64,000 nucleotides of DNA from Escherichia coli (GTDB lineage Bacteria; Pseudomonadota; Gammaproteobacteria; Enterobacterales; Enterobacteriaceae). The notes under the pieces are model-generated. The model had not been told where the DNA came from. It did not search any database and worked only from the letters and a program-made list of their open reading frames with translations. Shown in pieces: positions 9,808 to 53,650 of the stretch. The stretch is taken from assembly GCF_016026235.1 (NCBI RefSeq), contig NZ_CP065613.1, one strand, 5' to 3'. How positions within the stretch are numbered: the first letter of the stretch is position 1; the number at the start of each line of letters is the position of its first letter. Made by a program: the position numbers and the translations under genes.

Positions 9808-10851
9808 ATGCGTATTGAAGAAGATCTGAAGTTAGGTTTTAAAGACGTTCTCATCCGCCCTAAACGCTCCACTCTTAAAAGCCGTTCCGATGTTGAACTG
9901 GAACGTCAATTCACCTTCAAACATTCAGGTCAGAGCTGGTCCGGCGTGCCGATTATCGCCGCAAATATGGACACCGTAGGCACATTTTCTATGGCCTCTG
10001 CGCTGGCTTCTTTTGATATTTTGACTGCTGTGCATAAACACTATTCTGTCGAAGAGTGGCAAGCGTTTATCAACAATTCTTCCGCTGATGTGCTGAAACA
10101 TGTGATGGTTTCTACCGGTACGTCAAATGCGGATTTCGAAAAAACTAAACAGATTCTCGACCTGAACCCGGCATTAAATTTCGTTTGTATTGACGTGGCG
10201 AATGGTTATTCCGAACACTTCGTGCAGTTCGTTGCGAAAGCGCGTGAAGCGTGGCCGACCAAAACCATTTGTGCTGGTAACGTAGTGACTGGTGAAATGT
10301 GTGAGGAGCTTATCCTCTCAGGTGCCGATATCGTTAAAGTTGGCATTGGCCCAGGTTCTGTTTGTACAACTCGCGTCAAAACAGGCGTCGGTTATCCGCA
10401 ACTTTCTGCGGTAATCGAATGTGCCGATGCTGCGCACGGTCTGGGCGGAATGATCGTCAGCGATGGTGGCTGCACCACGCCGGGCGATGTCGCGAAAGCT
10501 TTTGGCGGCGGTGCCGATTTCGTCATGCTTGGCGGCATGCTGGCGGGCCACGAAGAGAGCGGCGGTCGCATCGTTGAGGAGAACGGCGAGAAATTTATGC
10601 TGTTCTACGGCATGAGCTCCGAGTCTGCGATGAAACGTCACGTTGGCGGCGTTGCGGAATATCGCGCAGCAGAAGGTAAAACCGTTAAGCTGCCGCTGCG
10701 AGGCCCGGTTGAAAATACCGCGCGTGATATTTTGGGCGGCCTGCGTTCAGCTTGTACATACGTTGGGGCTTCACGCCTGAAAGAACTGACCAAGCGCACC
10801 ACATTTATCCGTGTGCAGGAACAAGAAAACCGCATCTTCAACAACCTGTAA
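9808..10851 (+). CDS. guaC: GMP reductase GuaC
   Basis: 347 aa IMPDH/GMPR-family [24 protein letters not shown]... Confidence 0.95.
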
Positions 10852-38979: not shown

Positions 38980-39656
38980 GCGGCGTTTTCCTTAATTTGA
39001 TGAACATTATTGATGCCGTAGTAATCACAAACAGTGGCATCGACGAAAGAGAGATCGTTATCAATCTCATTGGAGTCAAACATTCCCATTGGGGATTTAA
39101 CAGTGTCTGCACCGTTGTTTTTCGTGGTGAAAAAGAACTGGTCATCACGGGTAAGGGTGCGAAGAACTATAGTAAACATGCCTTCGACAGTGATTTTCTC
39201 GTCCAGCATTTTTCCTATAGTTTTCATTTTCACGCGCCCCATAGGGGTTTCTTCGGTGTGCGCAAGAAAATAGACTCTCAGGTCATCTGGCGCATCCTGT
39301 GCAGCCTTAATCACCTCCCATGCGTGGCGGCCTATCTCAGTAAATTTATCAAACGATTTTTCTTCTGAGCGGCGCATAAACTCATTGCTCATCACATACT
39401 GGAAGTCATCAACAATAACGATTCTTTTCCCGTATTCGTGAGCACGCTTAATTACGGCAACTATTACGCCCCATTTATCAGTGGTAACTACGGTTCCTTT
39501 TTTTGCTCTGGCATCCCATGCCAGCCAGTCTTTTGATTTAAATGGCAGCGGCTTGCCTATTGGTTTTATAAGTATTGCTTCCTCTGGATTGATATTTCTC
39601 ATGCTGGTTGATTTTCCGGTGCCAGATTCACCGAGTATTAATGTCGCAGTTCCCAT
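38976..39656 (-). CDS. Sak4-like RecA-fold ATPase (phage recombination/annealing protein)
   Basis: 226 aa with Walker A ILGESGTGKST and Walker B-like IVIVDDF; occupies the position of lambda exo/bet. Confidence 0.6.
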   Translation of the reverse strand: MGTATLILGESGTGKSTSMRNINPEEAILIKPIGKPLPFKSKDWLAWDARAKKGTVVTTDKWGVIVAVIKRAHEYGKRIVIVDDFQYVMSNEFMRRSEEKSFDKFTEIGRHAWEVIKAAQDAPDDLRVYFLAHTEETPMGRVKMKTIGKMLDEKITVEGMFTIVLRTLTRDDQFFFTTKNNGADTVKSPMGMFDSNEIDNDLSFVDATVCDYYGINNVHQIKENAA

Positions 39657-39992: not shown

Positions 39993-40811
39993 TTAAGCAG
40001 CCATCTGATGATATTTTTCCCTGAAGGCTGCCGGGGAGATATTCCCCAGACGAGAGTGACGACGCTGACGATTGTAGAAAATCTCAATGTATTCCCGTAT
40101 TACTGAGATGGCCTCATTCCGGCTCTTAAAACGATAGTGGCTCAGGCTCTCATTTTTCAGCGTTCCCCAGAAGCTTTCCATCGGAGCGTTGTCGTAACAG
40201 TTACCTTTACGCGACATTGATGTTTTCAGACCAGACTGCTCCTGTATGACCCGGTAATCGTATGCGCAGTACTGTGAACCTCGATCGGAGTGGTGGATTA
40301 GCCCGGCAGGTGGGCGCTGGCTCCTGAGCGCCATAAACAGGGCTTTACCTGTCAGCTCTTTTGTCATGCGCTCTCCCATGGCGTAGCCGACAATTTCGCA
40401 CGTATAAACATCTTTGATGCCAGCGAGGTACAACCATCCCTCCTGTGTGGCAACATACGTCAGGTCCGCCACCCAGACCTGATTTGGTGCTGTAGGAGCG
40501 AACGTCTGGTTCAGCAGATTTGGCGCAACTGGCAGATTGTGGTTCGAGTTCGTAGTCGCTCTGAACTTGCGTTTCTGCTTACAGCGTAGCCTTAGCTCCT
40601 TACGAAGACGTGCCAGTCGGTCACGACCAACGATGATGCCATTCTCTGCCAGCTCCGTCTGGAGCCGCCGGGTTCCATATGTTTCGCGAGTGCGGATATG
40701 TGCCACCTTAATCTCCAGTTTTAGCCGCTCATCACTTTGTTTTCTGTCTGAGGGTTCATGCTGTACCCAGTTGTAATAACCGCTCCTGGATACACCAAAT
40801 ACCCGACACAT
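39993..40811 (-). CDS. IS3-family transposase OrfB (DDE)
   Basis: 272 aa rve-domain ORF. Confidence 0.85.
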   Translation of the reverse strand: MCRVFGVSRSGYYNWVQHEPSDRKQSDERLKLEIKVAHIRTRETYGTRRLQTELAENGIIVGRDRLARLRKELRLRCKQKRKFRATTNSNHNLPVAPNLLNQTFAPTAPNQVWVADLTYVATQEGWLYLAGIKDVYTCEIVGYAMGERMTKELTGKALFMALRSQRPPAGLIHHSDRGSQYCAYDYRVIQEQSGLKTSMSRKGNCYDNAPMESFWGTLKNESLSHYRFKSRNEAISVIREYIEIFYNRQRRHSRLGNISPAAFREKYHQMAA

Positions 40812-40846
40812 CGCTTCAATGGGAAATTGTTGTCGCCATTGTTCGA

Positions 40847-41149
40847 TTAACGCGTATTTTTCAGCGACTCCTGTGCAAAATACGCTGTTGCTTTTTTTAA
40901 TATATCTCGCTCAAGGCGAGCTTCATTTAACGCCTTACGCAGTTGCAGAATTTCAGATTCCAGTTCAGCCACCGTGCGGGAACCAGGAGTACCGAGCCCT
41001 TTTCTGGCGGCGGTAACCCATTGTCCTAAAGTGCCTTCAGGAAGGGATAATCGGGAAGCGCCTTCACTGATCGAAAGTTGATTTTCAAGAACCGTTCTGA
41101 CAGCTTCGGCTTTGAACTCTTTAGAGTAACGTTGGGTTTTTCTGCTCAT
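40847..41149 (-). CDS. IS3-family transposase OrfA (HTH)
   Basis: 100 aa MSRKTQRYSKEFKAEAVRTVLENQLSISEGASRL... Confidence 0.85.
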   Translation of the reverse strand: MSRKTQRYSKEFKAEAVRTVLENQLSISEGASRLSLPEGTLGQWVTAARKGLGTPGSRTVAELESEILQLRKALNEARLERDILKKATAYFAQESLKNTR

Positions 41150-41715: not shown

Positions 41716-42042
41716 TCAAATAAGTGGTTTGCTGCCTAATTTCATTTTCTGGCGACCAACACAAGTCACACCCATTTCACTGCGTGGCTTGCTGTACCAT
41801 GTGCGCTGATTCTTGCGCTCAATACGTTGCAGGTTGCTTTCAATCTGTTCGTGGTATTCAGCCAGCACTGTAAGGTCTATCGGATTCAGCGCGCTTTCTA
41901 CTCGTGATTTCGGTTTGCGATTCAGCGAGAGAATAGGGCGGTTAACTGGTTTTGCGCTTACCCCAACCAACAGGGGATTTGCTGCTTTCCATTGAGCCTG
42001 TTTCTCTGCGCGACGTTCGCGGCGGCGTGTTTGTGCATCCAT
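41716..42042 (-). CDS. N: Antitermination protein N (lambda-type)
   Basis: 107 aa MDAQTRRRERRAEKQAQWKAANPLLVGVSAKPVNRPILSL... with arginine-rich motif; the ORF track adds 30 upstream codons. Confidence 0.9.
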   Translation of the reverse strand: MDAQTRRRERRAEKQAQWKAANPLLVGVSAKPVNRPILSLNRKPKSRVESALNPIDLTVLAEYHEQIESNLQRIERKNQRTWYSKPRSEMGVTCVGRQKMKLGSKPLI

Positions 42043-42152
42043 CTGGATTCTCCTGTCAGTTAGCTTTGAGTAACGCGCCGTGATGCTTATCTCCACGGTT
42101 GCTGTCTTGCAGCTGCATTTCGCGCTACTCAAAGCTTTCTGCTTTGAATGCT

Positions 42153-42184
42153 GCCCTTCTTCAGGGCTTAATTTTTAAGAGCAT
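42153..42184 (-). promoter_or_regulatory. nutL (boxB hairpin GCCCTGAAGAAGGGC plus adjacent boxA-like element)
   Basis: On the bottom strand ...gctcttaaaaattaagccctgaagaagggcagc... upstream of N. Confidence 0.75.
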
Positions 42185-42342
42185 CACCTTCAATGGTGGT
42201 CAGTGCGTCCTGCTGATGGCTAAATAGTACGATTTGTACTTTATCGAGTCAATACAAAATGTTCTAAATATAATTAGTTTCTTATAACGCTTTGTATTTA
42301 ATGGGTTTATATTTTGGAAAAAGAAAACCCGACACTAAGGTC

Positions 42343-43768
42343 TAATGCCGATCAGTTAAGGATCAGTTGACCGATCCAGTGGCTGTGTAAGAATCCGGAA
42401 ACGCTCACTTGTTTCCGGATTTTTTTATGCACATTGGACAGGCTCTTGATCTGGTATCCCGTTACGATTCTCTGCGTAACCCACTGACTTCTCTGGGGGA
42501 TTACCTCGACCCCGAACTCATCTCTCGTTGCCTTGCCGAATCAGGTACTGTAACGCTACGCAAGCGCCGTCTTCCCCTCGAAATGATGGTCTGGTGTATT
42601 GTTGGCATGGCGCTTGAGCGTAAAGAACCTCTTCACCAGATTGTGAATCGCCTGGACATCATGCTGCCGGGCAATCGCCCCTTCGTTGCCCCCAGTGCCG
42701 TTATTCAGGCCCGCCAGCGCCTGGGAAGTGAGGCTGTCCGCCGCGTGTTCACGAAAACAGCGCAGCTCTGGCATAACGCCACGCCGCATCCGCACTGGTG
42801 CGGCCTGACCCTGCTGGCCATCGATGGTGTGTTCTGGCGCACACCGGATACACCAGAGAACGATGCAGCCTTCCCCCGCCAGACACATGCCGGGAACCCG
42901 GCGCTCTACCCGCAGGTCAAAATGGTCTGCCAGATGGAACTGACCAGCCATCTGCTGACGGCTGCAGCCTTCGGCACGATGAAGAACAGCGAAAATGAGC
43001 TTGCTGAGCAACTTATAGAACAAACCGGCGATAACACTCTGACGTTAATGGATAAAGGTTATTACTCACTGGGACTGTTAAATGCCTGGAGCCTGGCGGG
43101 AGAACACCGCCACTGGATGATACCTCTCAGAAAGGGAGCGCAATATGAAGAGCTCAGAAAACTGGGTAAAGGCGATCATCTGGTGAAGCTGAAAACCAGC
43201 CCGCAGGCACGAAAAAAGTGGCCGGGACTGGGAAATGAAGTGACAGCCCGCCTGCTGACCGTGACGCGCAAAGGAAAAGTCTGCCATCTGCTGACGTCGA
43301 TGACGGACGCCATGCGCTTCCCCGGAGGAGAAATGGCGGATCTGTACAGTCATCGCTGGGAAATCGAACTGGGATACAGGGAGATAAAACAGACGATGCA
43401 ACTGAGCAGGCTGACGCTGAGAAGTAAAAAGCCGGAGCTTGTGGAGCAAGAGCTGTGGGGTGTCTTACTGGCTTATAATCTGGTGAGATATCAGATGATT
43501 AAAATGGCGGAACATCTGAAAGGTTACTGGCCGAATCAACTGAGTTTCTCAGAATCATGCGGAATGGTGATGAGAATGCTGATGACATTGCAGGGCGCTT
43601 CACCGGGACGTATACCGGAGCTGATGCGCGATCTTGCAAGTATGGGACAACTTGTGAAATTACCGACGAGAAGGGGAAGGGCCTTCCCGAGAGTGGTAAA
43701 GGAGAGGCCCTGGAAATACCCCACAGCCCCGAAAAAGAGCCAGTCAGTTGCTTAACTGACTGGCATTA
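42343..43768 (+). mobile_element. IS4 (1426 bp) with 12-bp target duplication gacactaaggtc
   Basis: Terminal inverted repeats taatgccgatcagttaagga.../...ttaactgactggcatta; identical 12-mer at 42331-42342 and 43769-43780. Confidence 0.88.
42409..43755 (+). CDS. IS4 transposase
   Basis: 448 aa DDE transposase ORF filling the element. Confidence 0.88.
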
Positions 43769-43815
43769 GACACTAAGGTCGGGTTATTGTTGTGTGCTTT
43801 AGAGTAGTGAGGCTG

Positions 43816-44550
43816 TTAACTAAATGTCTCTTCAGGCCACTGGCTGGCGATAACTTTCCCCACAACGGAACAACTCTCATTGCATGGGATCATTGGGTAT
43901 TGTGGGTTTAGTGGCTGTAGAAACACCTGACCACTATCCCTGATCAGTTTCTTGAAAGTAAATTCATCACCACCAAGTCTGGCTATGCAGAAATCGCCGG
44001 GCTCAACAGCTTGCTCAGGGTCAACCAGAATTAACATCCCGTCAGGAAAACTGGGTTTGGAACCTGTTGGTGCGGTCATGGAATTACCTTCAACTTCAAG
44101 CCAAAACGCACAATCACTGGCTTTTTTGGTTGTGCTGACCCATCTCTCCGCATCACCTTTGGTAAAGGTTCTAAGCTCAGGCGAGAACATCCCGGCCTGA
44201 ACATGAGAAAAAACAGGGTACTCATATTGTTTTTTAACGGGGGCAGATGAGTATTCGCCAACAGGTGAAAATGTACCGTCGTGGTTGAATGAGACGTTAT
44301 CAATACCAAGGTATTTAAACACCACACCAATCTCGTCAAGAGATGGATGACGAGATCCGCGCAACCAGTGACCAATTCCACCCTGCGTCATACCAAGCTC
44401 TTCAGCTAACTTCTCTTGAGTTATGCCGAGCTCTTTCATTCTGGATCTAGCCAGTTCATACCATTTCATTTTCATATCCTTATTATTACGCTCTGTACTA
44501 AAACCATCCATGCACAAGATGTATTTTTTGTTTGCATTCCAAAAGTACAT
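43816..44550 (-). CDS. cI: CI-type prophage repressor (HTH_XRE N-domain plus S24 LexA-like C-domain)
   Basis: 244 aa; C-terminal half matches lambda cI ([34 protein letters not shown] ... [10 protein letters not shown]) while the N-terminal DNA-binding domain is unrelated to lambda cI. Confidence 0.85.
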
Positions 44551-44586
44551 ATCGTATTATTGTCTCATGGTTACTATGGAGGGCAT

Positions 44587-44802
44587 ATGAGCAACCTACG
44601 AAAATATCGAGAGTCACTGAATATCTCTCAAACAACACTTGCTAAGGCGGTTGGATGCACACAGGGAGCTATTGGGCATTGGGAATCTGGTCGTCGCTTC
44701 CCAGACCTTAAAACATGCCGCGCTCTTGTTGCATGCCTAAACAAGTTAGGCGCAAAAGTCAGTCTTGATGACGTGTTCCCTCCGGAACACAAAGCCGCTT
44801 AA
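44587..44802 (+). CDS. cro: Cro-like HTH repressor (non-lambda)
   Basis: 71 aa MSNLRKYRESLNISQTTLAKAVGCTQGAIGHWESGRR..., divergent from cI across a ~36 bp operator region. Confidence 0.75.
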   Translation: MSNLRKYRESLNISQTTLAKAVGCTQGAIGHWESGRRFPDLKTCRALVACLNKLGAKVSLDDVFPPEHKAA

Positions 44803-44921
44803 GACATTCCAGCTCTTACACATTCCAGCCCTGAAAAAGGGCATCCAATTAAACCACACCTATGGTGTATGCATTTATTTGCATACATTCAATCAATTGT
44901 TGTCTAAGGAAATACTTACAT

Positions 44922-45290
44922 ATGGTTCGTGCAAACAAACGCAACGAGGCTCTACGAATCGAGAGTGCGTTGCTTAACAAAATCGCAATGCTTGGAACTG
45001 AGAAGACAGCGGAAGCTGTGGGAGTTGATAAGTCGCAGATCAGCAGGTGGAAGAGGGACTGGATTCCAAAGTTCTCAATGCTGCTTGCTGTTCTTGAATG
45101 GGGCGTCGTTGACGACGATATGGCTCGATTGGCACGACAAGTTGCTTCGATTCTCACCAATAAAAACGCCCGGTGTGGCAAACCGAGCGTTCTGAACAAA
45201 TCCAGATGGAGTTCTGAGGTCATTACTGGATCTATCAACAGGAGTCATTATGACAAATACAGCAAAAATACTCAACTTCGGCAGAGGTAA
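44922..45290 (+). CDS. cII: cII transcriptional activator, C-terminus divergent from lambda (possible frameshift)
   Basis: Residues 1-80 match lambda cII (MVRANKRNEALRIESALLNKIAMLGTEKTAEAVGVDKSQISRWKRDW...); the lambda C-terminal EQIQMEF is encoded in another frame. Confidence 0.7.
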   Translation: MVRANKRNEALRIESALLNKIAMLGTEKTAEAVGVDKSQISRWKRDWIPKFSMLLAVLEWGVVDDDMARLARQVASILTNKNARCGKPSVLNKSRWSSEVITGSINRSHYDKYSKNTQLRQR

Positions 45291-46188
45291 CTTTGCCGGA
45301 CAGGAGCGTAATGTGGCAGATCTCGATGATGGTTACGCCAGATTATCAAATATGCTGCTTGAGGCTTATTCAGGCGCAGATCTGACCAAGCGACAGTTTA
45401 AAGTGCTGCTTGCCATTCTGCGTAAAACCTATGGGTGGAATAAACCAATGGACAGAATCACTGATTCTCAACTTAGCGAGTTGACAAAGTTACCTGTCAA
45501 ACGATGCAATGAAGCCAAGTTAGAACTCGTCAGAATGAATATTATCAAGCAGCAAGGCGGCATGTTTGGACCAAACAAAAACATCTCAGAATGGTGTATC
45601 CCTCAAAACGAGGGGGGTTCCCCTAAAATGAGGGATATCCCTCAAAACGAGGGAAAATCCCCTAAAACGAGGGATAAAACATCCCTCAAATTGGGGGATT
45701 GCTATCCCTCAAAACAGGGGGACACAAAAGACACTATTACAAAAGAAAAAAGAAAAGATTATTCGTCCGAGAATTCTGGCGAATCCTCTGACCAGCCAGA
45801 AAACGATCTTTCTGTGGTTAAACCGGATGCTGCAATTCAGAGCGGCAGCAAGTGGGGAACAGCAGAAGACCTGACCGCCGCAGAGTGGATGTTTGACATG
45901 GTGAAGACTATCGCGCCATCAGCCAGAAAACCGAATTTTGCTGGGTGGGCTAACGATATCCGCCTGATGCGTGAACGTGACGGACGTAACCACCGCGATA
46001 TGTGTGTGCTTTTCCGCTGGGCCTGCCAGGACAACTTCTGGTCCGGTAACGTGCTAAGTCCGGCCAAACTCCGCGACAAGTGGACCCAGCTCGAAATCAA
46101 CCGTAACAAGCAACAGGCAGGCGTGACAGCCAGCAAACCAAAACTCGACCTGACAAACACTGACTGGATTTACGGGGTGGATTTATGA
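45250..46188 (+). CDS. O: Replication initiator O (lambda-type)
   Basis: 312 aa, matches lambda O with a 13-aa insertion in the iteron-encoded segment. Confidence 0.9.
   Translation: MTNTAKILNFGRGNFAGQERNVADLDDGYARLSNMLLEAYSGADLTKRQFKVLLAILRKTYGWNKPMDRITDSQLSELTKLPVKRCNEAKLELVRMNIIKQQGGMFGPNKNISEWCIPQNEGGSPKMRDIPQNEGKSPKTRDKTSLKLGDCYPSKQGDTKDTITKEKRKDYSSENSGESSDQPENDLSVVKPDAAIQSGSKWGTAEDLTAAEWMFDMVKTIAPSARKPNFAGWANDIRLMRERDGRNHRDMCVLFRWACQDNFWSGNVLSPAKLRDKWTQLEINRNKQQAGVTASKPKLDLTNTDWIYGVDL
45598..45765 (+). promoter_or_regulatory. ori-lambda: six iteron-like 18-19 bp repeats plus AT-rich region, inside O
   Basis: atccctcaaaacgagggg / ttcccctaaaatgaggga / atccctcaaaacgaggga / atcccctaaaacgaggga / atccctcaaattggggga / atccctcaaaacaggggga then A-rich tract. 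Confidence 0.8.
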
Positions 46189-46886
46189 AAAACATCGCCG
46201 CACAGATGGTTAACTTTGACCGTGAGCAGATGCGTCGGATCGCCAACAACTTGCCGGAACAGTACGACGAAAAGCCGCAGGTACAGCAGGTAGCGCAGAT
46301 CATCAACGGTGTGTTCAGCCAGTTACTGGCAACTTTCCCGGCGAGCCTGGCTAACCGTGACCAGAACGAACTGAACGAAATCCGCCGCCAGTGGGTTCTG
46401 GCTTTCCGGGAAAACGGGATCACCACAATGGAACAGGTTAACGCAGGAATGCGCGTAGCCCGTCGGCAGAATCGACCATTCCTGCCATCACCCGGGCAGT
46501 TTGTCGCCTGGTGCCGGGAAGAAGCATCCGTTACCGCCGGGCTGCCAAACGCCAGCGAGCTGGTTGATATGGTTTACGAGTATTGCCGGAAGCGAGGCCT
46601 GTATCCGGATGCGGAGTCTTATCCGTGGAAATCAAACGCGCACTACTGGCTGGTTACCAACCTGTATCAGAACATGCGGGCCAATGCGCTGACTGACGCG
46701 GAATTACGACGCAAGGCTGCCGATGAACTGACCTGTATGACAGTGCGAATTAACCGTGGTGAGGCGATACCTGAACCAGTAAAACAACTTCCTGTCATGG
46801 GCGGTAGACCTCTAAATCGTGCACAGGCTCTGGCGAAGATCGTAGAAATTAAAGCTAAGTTCGGACTGAAAGGAGCCAGTGTATGA
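46185..46886 (+). CDS. P: Replication protein P (DnaB helicase loader)
   Basis: 233 aa matching lambda P (MKNIAAQMVNFDREQMRRIANN...). Confidence 0.9.
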   Translation: MKNIAAQMVNFDREQMRRIANNLPEQYDEKPQVQQVAQIINGVFSQLLATFPASLANRDQNELNEIRRQWVLAFRENGITTMEQVNAGMRVARRQNRPFLPSPGQFVAWCREEASVTAGLPNASELVDMVYEYCRKRGLYPDAESYPWKSNAHYWLVTNLYQNMRANALTDAELRRKAADELTCMTVRINRGEAIPEPVKQLPVMGGRPLNRAQALAKIVEIKAKFGLKGASV

Positions 46887-47173
46887 CGGGCAAAGAGGCA
46901 ATTATTCATTATCTGGAGACGCACAAGAGCTTCTGTGCGCCGGACGTTGCCGCGCTAACAGGTGCAACAGTAACCAGCATAAATCAGGCCGCGGCTAAAA
47001 TGGCACGGGCAGGTCTTCTGGTTATCGAAAGTAAGGTCTGGCGAACGGTGTATTACCGGTTCGCTACCAGAGAAGAACGGGAAGGAAAGGTGAGCACGAA
47101 CCTGATTTTTAAGGAGTGTCGCCAGAGTGCCGCGATGAAACGGGTATTGGCGGTATATGGAGTTAAAAGATGA
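46883..47173 (+). CDS. ren: Ren (Rex exclusion escape protein)
   Basis: 96 aa matching lambda Ren (MTGKEAIIHYLETHKSFCAPDVAALTG...). Confidence 0.85.
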   Translation: MTGKEAIIHYLETHKSFCAPDVAALTGATVTSINQAAAKMARAGLLVIESKVWRTVYYRFATREEREGKVSTNLIFKECRQSAAMKRVLAVYGVKR

Positions 47174-47243
47174 CCATCTACATCACTGAGCTTGTAACAG
47201 GCCTGCTGGTAATCGCAGGCCTTTTTATTTGGGGGAGAGGGAA

Positions 47244-47522
47244 GTGAACGATAGCTACCGACAGTTTGAAAACTGGTGGTCAAAAGACAAAAGCCAGTTC
47301 ACAGGAGACGATGAATTAAAAGAGTTTGCCTGGGTGATATGGCAGGCATCGCGCTCTGCTATTGAACTGGATATCGACTGGCCCGAATCGAATGACGACT
47401 TTTGGAAAGATGGTGAAGAAGGTGCTTATGCGATGGGTTATGAGGATGGGCGTGACAAAACGGTAATTGCAGTAATGAAAGCCATCAGGGCCGCAGGAAT
47501 CAAAGAAAAGAATTTCGATTAA
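47244..47522 (+). CDS. Hypothetical acidic prophage protein (GTG start assumed)
   Basis: ORF with upstream GGAGAGGG Shine-Dalgarno, inserted between ren and ninB. Confidence 0.4.
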   Translation: MNDSYRQFENWWSKDKSQFTGDDELKEFAWVIWQASRSAIELDIDWPESNDDFWKDGEEGAYAMGYEDGRDKTVIAVMKAIRAAGIKEKNFD

Positions 47523-49922: not shown

Positions 49923-50258
49923 GTTTGTTTCCTGTTGCGTTACGCGAATCATTATAGAGTGTGTTGTGTCATTCGCAACCGTTGGTTTGACAAAAACACA
50001 TATCCGGGGCTATATTCCCTGAACGCCAGCAAATCTGGCGTCGGGATTGGCGTCCCGGATATCGAAACGGTGCATAACCGCGCTGGCGGTTTTTTTATGC
50101 GCTAAGCACAGTCACATTCGCGATTTATGGTGGGCTGTGTGGGGGAGTTGAGAGACTCGCCGGATGTTTCGACCGGTTACGCCAACCCTGCACAGTTCAC
50201 CACCCAGCGATTGGCGTCGCAGGTGGTGAGTTAAAAACCATCGAAACGCGAGGTCGTT

Positions 50259-50945
50259 ATGACTGTTCAGATTTCTGTCAAAAACCTTTCCCCTGTTACC
50301 TATAACCAGATTCCGGTAATCACAACTGAGTTGCTTGCCCGCCTTTATGGAACAGAAACAATCCGTATACAGCAGAATCACCATGAAAATAAATCTCGGT
50401 TTATTGAGGGAAAGCACTTCTTTAAAGCTGTTGGTGATGAACTCAGAAATTTGCGACTAGTTTTAAACGAGTCGCAAAATGAGGTGAAAATCTCTCCCAA
50501 AACCCGCTCGCTCATCCTCTGGACAGAACGAGGCGCAGCCCGCCACGCAAAAATGCTCGAAACCGATCAGGCGTGGGAAGTGTTCGAAAAACTGGAAGAC
50601 TGCTATTTCAGCCAGACTTCGAAAAGCGCAGGTCATCACGAGAAGAAAACCAGCGAGCTTTCTGCAAAAGATGCAAACAGTCTGGTATGGTTGTGGGATT
50701 ATGCCAACCGCTCACAGGCATTATTCCGCGAACTGTATCCGGCGCTAAGACAAATTCAGTCTAACTATTCCGGCAGATGCCACGACTACGGTCATGAGTT
50801 CTCGTATGTTATCGGAATGGCGAGAGACGTTTTAATCAATCACACACGAGATGTTGATATTAATGAGCCAGACGGACCAACGAATCTTTCTGCATGGGTA
50901 AGACTTAAGAACAAAGAATTACCTCCTTCACTACATCACTACTGA
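50259..50945 (+). CDS. ORF6N-domain antirepressor-like protein
   Basis: 228 aa; N-terminal ORF6N-like segment ([36 protein letters not shown]). Confidence 0.55.
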
Positions 50946-52399: not shown

Positions 52400-52584
52400 A
52401 CGCCACAATTCAAACGATACCAGAGCTTCTTATCCAGACACGAGGCAATCAGACCGAAGTGGCGAGGATGCTTTCCTGCGCAAGAGGAACAGTGCTCAAG
52501 TACAACCGAGACAGCAAAGGCGAGCGTCACGTAATAGTTAACGGCGTCCTGATGGTCAAACAGGGCAAAAGGGGAAGACGATGA
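52396..52584 (+). CDS. ninH: NinH-like protein
   Basis: 62 aa ...RGNQTEVARMLSCARGTVLKY..., located just upstream of Q. Confidence 0.65.
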   Translation: MNATIQTIPELLIQTRGNQTEVARMLSCARGTVLKYNRDSKGERHVIVNGVLMVKQGKRGRR

Positions 52585-53099
52585 GCATAAGAGAACTAAA
52601 CCTCACCAAAGAACAGCACGAGTGGCTGAATGGCTGGCTTGAACTGTGGGGCGCATGGGTTTATTCAGGTCGTCTGGAAAAGCGTATGAGCAGCGTAATA
52701 GCGAAGTTCATGGAGAGCGTAGAGCCGGGAAGAGTTATGACAAGGCCAATGTGCAATGATGATGATGGAATGTTGATTTCTCAGGTCGTCGATTCCGTCA
52801 TGTGCATTGACAAGAAAGCCTTTGGCATCCTCCTCAGCTACTACGCTCATGGTTCATCTAAGCGAGCAATTGCATCCTACTATCACGCGACTGCAAAGCC
52901 ACGCAAGATGTGTGGACGTGGTGGCGAGGGATGGAGAAAACCTTCACTGGCAACCTGTAGAAACGAAATTGACGACATCCTGAAAGCGTCGTTATTTGTT
53001 TTGTACCAGCCAATGCAAAATGCTTTCAAAATGCGTAAACGTGTTGAGAAAGTTAAGCATTTTGCTGTTAAAGACCTTGACATGCAATTATCCATTTAG
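52581..53099 (+). CDS. Q: Late-gene antiterminator Q (non-lambda type)
   Basis: 172 aa ORF in the Q position, directly followed by a pR'-like promoter and terminator. Confidence 0.65.
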   Translation: MSIRELNLTKEQHEWLNGWLELWGAWVYSGRLEKRMSSVIAKFMESVEPGRVMTRPMCNDDDGMLISQVVDSVMCIDKKAFGILLSYYAHGSSKRAIASYYHATAKPRKMCGRGGEGWRKPSLATCRNEIDDILKASLFVLYQPMQNAFKMRKRVEKVKHFAVKDLDMQLSI

Positions 53100-53162: not shown

Positions 53163-53237
53163 GGGTCAGTCGTATAAAGGTCATTACGGAAGGCTGTTAA
53201 CCTTCTTATCGTGGTTCGAGTCCACGCTGTCCCGCCA
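53163..53237 (+). tRNA. tRNA-like sequence, anticodon GUU (Asn), imperfect acceptor and D stems; possibly degenerate
   Basis: Anticodon arm gaagg-CTGTTAA-ccttc, T arm cgtgg-TTCGAGT-ccacg, 3' CCA; one mismatch in the acceptor stem, weak D stem. Confidence 0.35.
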
Positions 53238-53242
53238 AATAT

Positions 53243-53318
53243 GCTGGTTTAGCTCCAATGGTAGAGCAGTCGCCTTGTAAGCGAATGGGTAGCGGTTCAA
53301 GTCCGTTAACCAGCACCA
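53243..53318 (+). tRNA. tRNA, anticodon UGU (Thr), 76 nt with encoded CCA
   Basis: 7-bp acceptor stem GCTGGTT/AACCAGC, D arm GCTC-CAATGGTA-GAGC, anticodon loop CTTGTAA, T arm AGCGG-TTCAAGT-CCGTT, discriminator A, CCA. Confidence 0.6.
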
Positions 53319-53434
53319 TAACTGAGCCGTAGCCACTGGCTATCCTGAATTCATCAGTGACAGTTACGCTGCGGCCTTCTTTTTCCCTTCCCAATATAAG
53401 AACTACGCCATCCGTTATTTGCGGAGGTGAGGCT

Positions 53435-53650
53435 ATGAAATCCATGGACAAAATATCAACGGGCATTGCCTACGGCACCTCCGCAGGCAGTGCCGGCTAC
53501 TGGTTTTTACAGTGGCTTGATCAGGTCAGTCCATCACAGTGGGCTGCGATTGGTGTGCTGGGAAGTCTGCTTCTGGGGCTTCTGACTTATCTGACGAATC
53601 TGTATTTCAAAATAAGAGAAGATAAGCGTAAGGCTGCGAGAGGTGAATAA
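53435..53650 (+). CDS. S: Phage 21-type pinholin S (dual-start; antiholin from Met1, holin from Met4)
   Basis: [45 protein letters not shown]... matches S21. Confidence 0.9.

Follow-up and report, generated by a model that had tools for sequence, protein, structure and literature searches.

A six-iteron variant of the lambda-type replication origin within gene O of a lambda-like prophage of Escherichia coli

The lambda-type origin with six initiator-binding iterons is already known: it has been annotated in the databases, published and studied biochemically for the Stx phages. In the GenBank record of phage 933W (AF125520, 1999), six sites for O binding carry the labels "ori iteron 1" to "ori iteron 6", and their positions are homologous to those described below. 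Kozlowska et al. (2020), who credit Nejman et al. (2009) with the original iteron comparison, describe six iterons in the Stx phage origins versus four in lambda, together with 13 additional residues in the O protein (PMC7466680). In EMSA the O proteins of lambda, P27 and 933W bind each single iteron, including iteron 1'; however, when the whole six-iteron origin is footprinted with DMS, strong protection is seen only at the four AT-proximal iterons, and the distal two are barely protected. Synonymous mutation of either distal iteron lowers transformation by a P27 replicon from ~5x10^4 to <10 per microgram. The same authors propose that the 13-residue insert is a spacer that loosens the O-some, making initiation less dependent on host processes (PMC7466680).

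Phage lambda, which has no distal 39-bp unit, has four iterons and an O protein of 299 aa, and phage 21 has the same origin type, again with four iterons. The iteron-containing plasmid origins (R6K, pSC101, P1, and F) can be compared by analogy only. These also consist of direct-repeat initiator sites beside an AT-rich element, and the number of repeats influences initiation; however, they depend on unrelated initiator families, and their iterons lie outside the coding sequence of the initiator, unlike those of the lambda type. To our knowledge, copy control by handcuffing has not been established for lambda O.

The window (the whole 64,000-nt stretch of E. coli DNA analysed here) contains a lambda-like prophage, whose origin region is composed of the following features. 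The 18-bp iteron boundaries were set in register with the annotated ITN1-4 of lambda, and the limits of the A-rich region follow the extent of ori-lambda given in PMC3349717.

43816-44550, - strand: CI-type repressor with HTH and S24 peptidase domains (domain match)
44587-44802, + strand: cro-like gene, first of the rightward pR operon (cII, O, origin, P); Pfam HTH_3 match
45250-46188, + strand: gene O, replication initiator of 312 aa with the origin inside its coding sequence; intact ORF
45598-45636, + strand: 39-bp in-frame unit, absent from lambda and phage 21, encoding IPQNEGGSPKMRD
45598-45615, + strand: extra iteron a (ATCCCTCAAAACGAGGGG), the most distant from the AT-rich region
45618-45635, + strand: extra iteron b (TTCCCCTAAAATGAGGGA), the "iteron 1'" of the Stx-phage literature
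45637-45654, + strand: ITN1 equivalent, identical to lambda 39034-39051
45657-45674, + strand: ITN2 equivalent, identical to lambda 39054-39071
45681-45698, + strand: ITN3 equivalent; reads TTGGGGG as in lambda, where the Stx form has TTAGGGG
45704-45721, + strand: ITN4 equivalent, identical to lambda
45722-45763, + strand: A-rich DNA-unwinding region, aligned with and identical to lambda 39119-39160
46185-46886, + strand: gene P, loader of the DnaB helicase recruited by O, 233 aa; intact ORF

The iteron array is confined to gene O. When the window was scanned with the pattern TCCCYYAAAWYNRGGGR, allowing at most one mismatch, six matches were found on the + strand, all between 45599 and 45721, against a chance expectation of 0.06 for the 64 kb. 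The total of seven matches (the seventh is the palindromic iteron 3 read on the - strand) was reached in none of 100 shuffles. The repeats match the 18-19 bp imperfect-palindrome consensus ATCCCTCAAAACGAGGGA and start 20, 19, 20, 24, and 23 bp apart, a spacing of about two helical turns. An AT-rich unwinding region of ~40 bp lies directly to the right of the last iteron, and here the GC content of gene O reaches its minimum (27.5% at 45720-45759, with an AT skew of +0.72). The iterons (45598-45721) lie within the coding sequence of an O-family initiator, and a gene for a P-family helicase loader, whose start overlaps the O stop codon, follows directly downstream. Residues 22-115 of O match Pfam PF04492 (Phage_rep_O, E=4e-36), and P matches PF06992 (Phage_lambda_P, E=2e-61). 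A sequence search of the PDB with O returned no solved relative; thus, the domain boundaries used here come from the Pfam match only. The cro-like gene, of 71 aa, is also called in related contigs.

We conclude, with a probability of roughly 93%, that the feature is a six-iteron variant of the lambda-type (O/P-dependent) origin, arranged as in the Stx phages 933W and P27; this assignment is based on the DNA and its predicted proteins. The likeness to these two phages includes the 39-bp insertion at the same place, the six iterons, the insert IPQNEGGSPKMRD, the A-rich region, and the arrangement of O and P. In DNA, gene O is 98-99% identical to its counterparts in Stx phages, phage 21, and lambda-group phages, with 98.6% identity to 933W/P27, and the O protein is 99% identical to that of P27. 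However, the O proteins of P27 and 933W have E17 and I37, whereas O of the window has the lambda residues G17 and L37, together with I78L, which is its sole difference from lambda O apart from the 13-residue insert. Iteron 3 likewise has the G of lambda in place of the A of iteron 3* in P27/933W. Extra iteron b is identical to the P27 sequence, while the last base of extra iteron a (45615) is G rather than A, a synonymous change (GGA to GGG). The window therefore has two of the features of the 933W/P27 type, the two iterons added by a 39-bp insertion and the 13 residues added to O, and lacks Gly17Glu, Leu37Ile, iteron 3*, and carriage of stx. Gly17Glu, Leu37Ile, and iteron 3* accompany the published examples and do not define the six-iteron arrangement. 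The remainder of the origin is that of lambda: across the lambda ori (39034-39160), the window has every base of the four AT-proximal iterons, the spacers between them, and the A-rich region in common with lambda.

The additional pair of iterons can be traced to a duplication. Tandem Repeats Finder detects a 39-bp unit present in 2.1 copies with 87% matches (45597-45676), and its two copies (45598-45636 and 45637-45675) differ at 5 of 39 positions, one of them within an iteron and four in the inter-iteron spacer. In a four-way alignment P27 is collinear with the window without a gap, while exactly 39 bp are missing in lambda and phage 21; outside this gap the window is nearly identical to both. 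As judged from the alignment, the insertion is a diverged tandem copy of the ITN1-spacer-ITN2-spacer unit inside gene O. Since the copies differ at five positions, the duplication is old, not fresh. Since 39 is a multiple of three, O stays in frame and gains 13 residues (312 aa versus 299 aa in lambda); the insert, which is identical in the O protein of P27, follows residue 116 and begins one residue past the end of the Pfam DNA-binding domain at residue 115. Phage 21 shares with the window the T before the first iteron and a patch at the 3' end of cII. A preliminary description, made from the letters of the window alone, had placed an ori-lambda with six iterons of 18-19 bp instead of four inside O at 45598-45765, had put an AT-rich unwinding region after them, and had taken the first two iterons for a copy of the first pair that added 13 residues to the O linker. 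Its coordinates are accurate within two bases, and each of these points agrees with the pattern scan, the Pfam matches, the identity of the O gene and the A-rich region to their relatives, the base composition, and the tandem repeat; the alignment with lambda O that it called for contains a single 39-bp gap in otherwise near identity.

The left part of the window is chromosomal and contains pdhR-aceEF-lpdA, of which aceEF-pdhR is 100% identical to E. coli FDAARGOS_943. At the left edge, Rfam PssrA (plasmid-encoded Shigella sRNA A) matches 152-241 with 103 bits, and an ORF of 383 aa (233-1384) lies just downstream. The prophage, whose int and xis are of the lambda type, begins near 32790 and adjoins lpdA and a neighbouring ORF of 228 aa, not the genes that usually flank the att site of lambda. 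The att core at the junction (~32791-32810), TTCTTATCAGTAA, differs from that of lambda, TTTTTATACTAA, pointing to the use of a secondary integration site. The int gene (32877-33946, - strand) is 98% identical to lambda int, but a 1-bp deletion near 33617 (lambda GGCAGACCCC to GGCAGCCCC) breaks it into two ORFs (131 and 230 aa); thus int is probably a pseudogene and the prophage probably excision-defective. The lambda-like cII gene (44922-45290) also has a 1-bp deletion, in an A6 run (~45163-45167) that, by our reading, doubles on the opposite strand as the T-tract of the oop terminator. The frameshift alters the C-terminal tail and gives a product of 122 aa, the reading frame of which extends into the beginning of O; shortly after the deletion comes a phage-21-like patch. 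Because the identical sequence is present in five independent assemblies, this deletion is probably real, not a homopolymer error.

Insertion sequences are also present. A complete IS4 of 1426 bp (42343-43768; Pfam Nterm_IS4 and DDE_Tnp_1) has inserted in a hairpin loop that separates the 3' end of cI from the pL/N region, and its 12-bp target, GACACTAAGGTC, is duplicated on either side (42331-42342 and 43769-43780). In the early-left region, an element of two ORFs (100 and 272 aa; 39993-41149, - strand) has the recombination-side genes on one side and the cIII thermoregulator/N region on the other; these ORFs presumably correspond to IS3-family orfA and orfB transposase genes, which they resemble by eye. 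Taken with the frameshifts in int and cII, the two IS elements make the prophage look defective. Farther to the right, Rfam matches to isrK (an Hfq-binding RNA) and C4 antisense RNA (50023-50207) lie directly upstream of an antirepressor-like ORF (50259-50945) with ORF6N and P22_AR_C domains. In Stx phages the interval between Q and the lysis genes is the slot for tRNA genes and stx. Here, no stx and no ORF of stxA size is present from Q (52581-53099) to the holin-like ORF (53357-53650), and the only features between these two genes are tRNA-Asn(gtt) and tRNA-Thr(tgt) (53163-53318).

On the model of lambda and of P27/933W, the old 39-bp tandem duplication in O would have yielded both the extra pair of iterons and 13 residues directly after the N-terminal DNA-binding domain. 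Dimers of O would bind the iterons, bending and wrapping the DNA to form the O-some. The A-rich region beside the iterons would unwind on supercoiled DNA, aided by transcription from pR, and host DnaB would be brought to the complex by P. The iterons at 45637-45721 would carry most of the O binding, while the distal iterons (45598-45635) would serve as weak auxiliary sites, of the kind needed in cis for the P27 replicon. The insert would lengthen the segment that follows the DNA-binding domain, and the proposal in the literature is that this gives looser packing of the O-some. The CI-type repressor would hold pR off, and with it the expression of O and P and the activation of the origin. Because O of the window lacks G17E and L37I and the first iteron has a base change, the quantities measured for P27 and 933W may not transfer exactly.

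The six-iteron form is common. Public collections contain exactly this 312-aa O protein under the name "replication protein [Escherichia coli]", and an identical 261-bp segment of the six-iteron origin was found in six independent assemblies, built with different assemblers from different samples; four come from NCBI, and two are sequencing runs assembled in Logan. With a 76-nt probe running from the extra iterons across their boundary with ITN1, and with matches required to cover at least 80% of the probe, the form is detected in 353 (~6.5%) of the 5426 complete E. coli genomes, mostly STEC, at 519 places and up to four times per genome. The exact allele is absent from the complete RefSeq E. 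coli genomes, where identity reaches at most 98.6% for the O gene and 97.4% for the 76-nt probe. Nor does the E. coli collection contain any match to at least 80% of the immunity/replication region (42000-47500). In a set with each species represented by one genome, no junction of the extra pair with ITN1 was found, a result that is uninformative for this question since E. coli/Shigella is represented there by a single genome. Among phage records, 72 contain the six-iteron form by the same probe, and another 55 lambda-like records match only its ITN1-ITN2 part, that is, they have the four-iteron form. One phage record whose organism name starts with 'Campylobacter' matches the lambda-type origin probe; this may reflect contamination or mislabelling.

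The exact junction pattern is present in 66 IMG/VR contigs, and by direct count six iterons are recognisable in 57 of the 66; in several others the fourth of the six is mutated, and the rest are either cut by contig ends or are two contigs with other arrangements, L015 and L042. L042 (IMGVR_UViG_2671180417_000002) is short of one iteron owing to a 20-bp deletion, and its O gene is frameshifted. In E. coli O157:H7 Z866 (NZ_CP062766.1, 4500125-4501529), an O gene of the four-iteron type has gained a fifth iteron by duplication of 23 bp, the iteron 3 unit, and this O gene is frameshifted and annotated as a pseudogene. Such out-of-frame changes in iteron number destroy the initiator, illustrating how the reading frame constrains the number of repeats. 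Contig L015 (IMGVR_UViG_2695420596_000008, 10124-10290) has eight iterons by way of a third, exact 39-bp unit; O is in frame across its array, with the 13-aa peptide repeated twice. The eight-iteron case is uncertain because ~60 bp separate the array from the contig end, and past the array the sequence diverges from O.

Assemblers can miscount short tandem repeats, and the exact extra copy in the eight-iteron array of L015 shows that artefacts or fresh slippage do occur. The extra pair in the window might therefore be an assembly artefact or a very recent, private slippage, and the preliminary description had itself allowed that alignment might reveal four iterons and an artefactual copy. Artefactual expansion or collapse, however, would yield identical copies, whereas those of the window differ at five positions; moreover, the exact 261-bp segment is found in six independent assemblies, and the same insertion in 353 complete genomes and 72 phage records. 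With diverged copies, independent assemblies, and hundreds of genomes carrying the array, this explanation is rejected, and the chance that it holds is negligible.

Two other explanations accept the six-iteron array but differ on what it does. One, which would leave the identification as a six-iteron ori-lambda intact, is that the prophage is decaying and that its origin, now a silent relic, has ceased to fire, as the split int gene, the altered tail of cII, the IS4 between cI and N, and the IS3-family element in the early-left region might indicate. However, the ORFs for O, P, ren, the CI-type repressor, cro, an N-like product, Q, and the lysozyme are intact, and the four AT-proximal iterons and the A-rich region are exactly as in lambda. 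Replication of lambda requires neither int nor cII, and induced, excision-defective lambda prophages still start 'onion-skin' replication in situ. Since the prophage looks defective, the origin may never support productive phage growth, but since the decayed genes are not required for replication from ori-lambda, it may still fire in situ upon induction; we consider a silent origin rather unlikely. It is more doubtful still that the importance of the duplication is confined to the protein, where it lengthens the O linker by 13 residues, and that the extra DNA repeats are passengers with no role in binding. The very weak DMS protection of the two distal iterons by the O proteins of lambda, P27, or 933W and the proposed role of the 13 residues as a spacer would fit this explanation (PMC7466680). 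Yet O bound every iteron tested alone, iteron 1' included; distal-iteron mutations that leave the residues of O unchanged abolished transformation by the P27 replicon (PMC7466680); and the extra iterons of the window retain the consensus. From the listed primers, the mutated P27 iterons are the homologues of 45598-45615 (leftmost, the 'iteron 1' of those authors) and 45618-45635. That iteron number could affect origin firing, as the preliminary description suggested, is thus a reasonable hypothesis, and one already tested for P27/933W (PMC7466680). For the window, the reading we retain is that of a six-iteron lambda-type origin whose distal pair would act as auxiliary O-binding sites.

Beyond correct annotation, the locus has little significance, and its value is modest: the variant is common in E. 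coli and is not confined to stx-carrying phages. Because the prophage of the window has no stx gene, the claim in the literature that extra iterons occur only in Stx phages is too narrow. More tentatively, and with odds that we still place below even, the six-iteron origin may not be a specialisation of Stx phages at all; it is found here in a stx-less, excision-defective lambda-like prophage, where it forms a natural chimera. With O, P, the origin, and the repressor intact and int broken, SOS induction could amplify the adjoining pdhR-aceEF-lpdA region by 'onion-skin' replication in situ (a mode illustrated in PMC3349717), rather than make phage. The O protein of this chimera joins the lambda DNA-binding residues (G17 and L37) with the 13-residue insert and so separates variables that are confounded in P27 and 933W, namely the weaker-binding substitutions on the one hand and the insert plus extra iterons on the other. 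Consequently, the allele could serve as a natural control for distinguishing the effects of the insert and the extra iterons from those of G17E and L37I.
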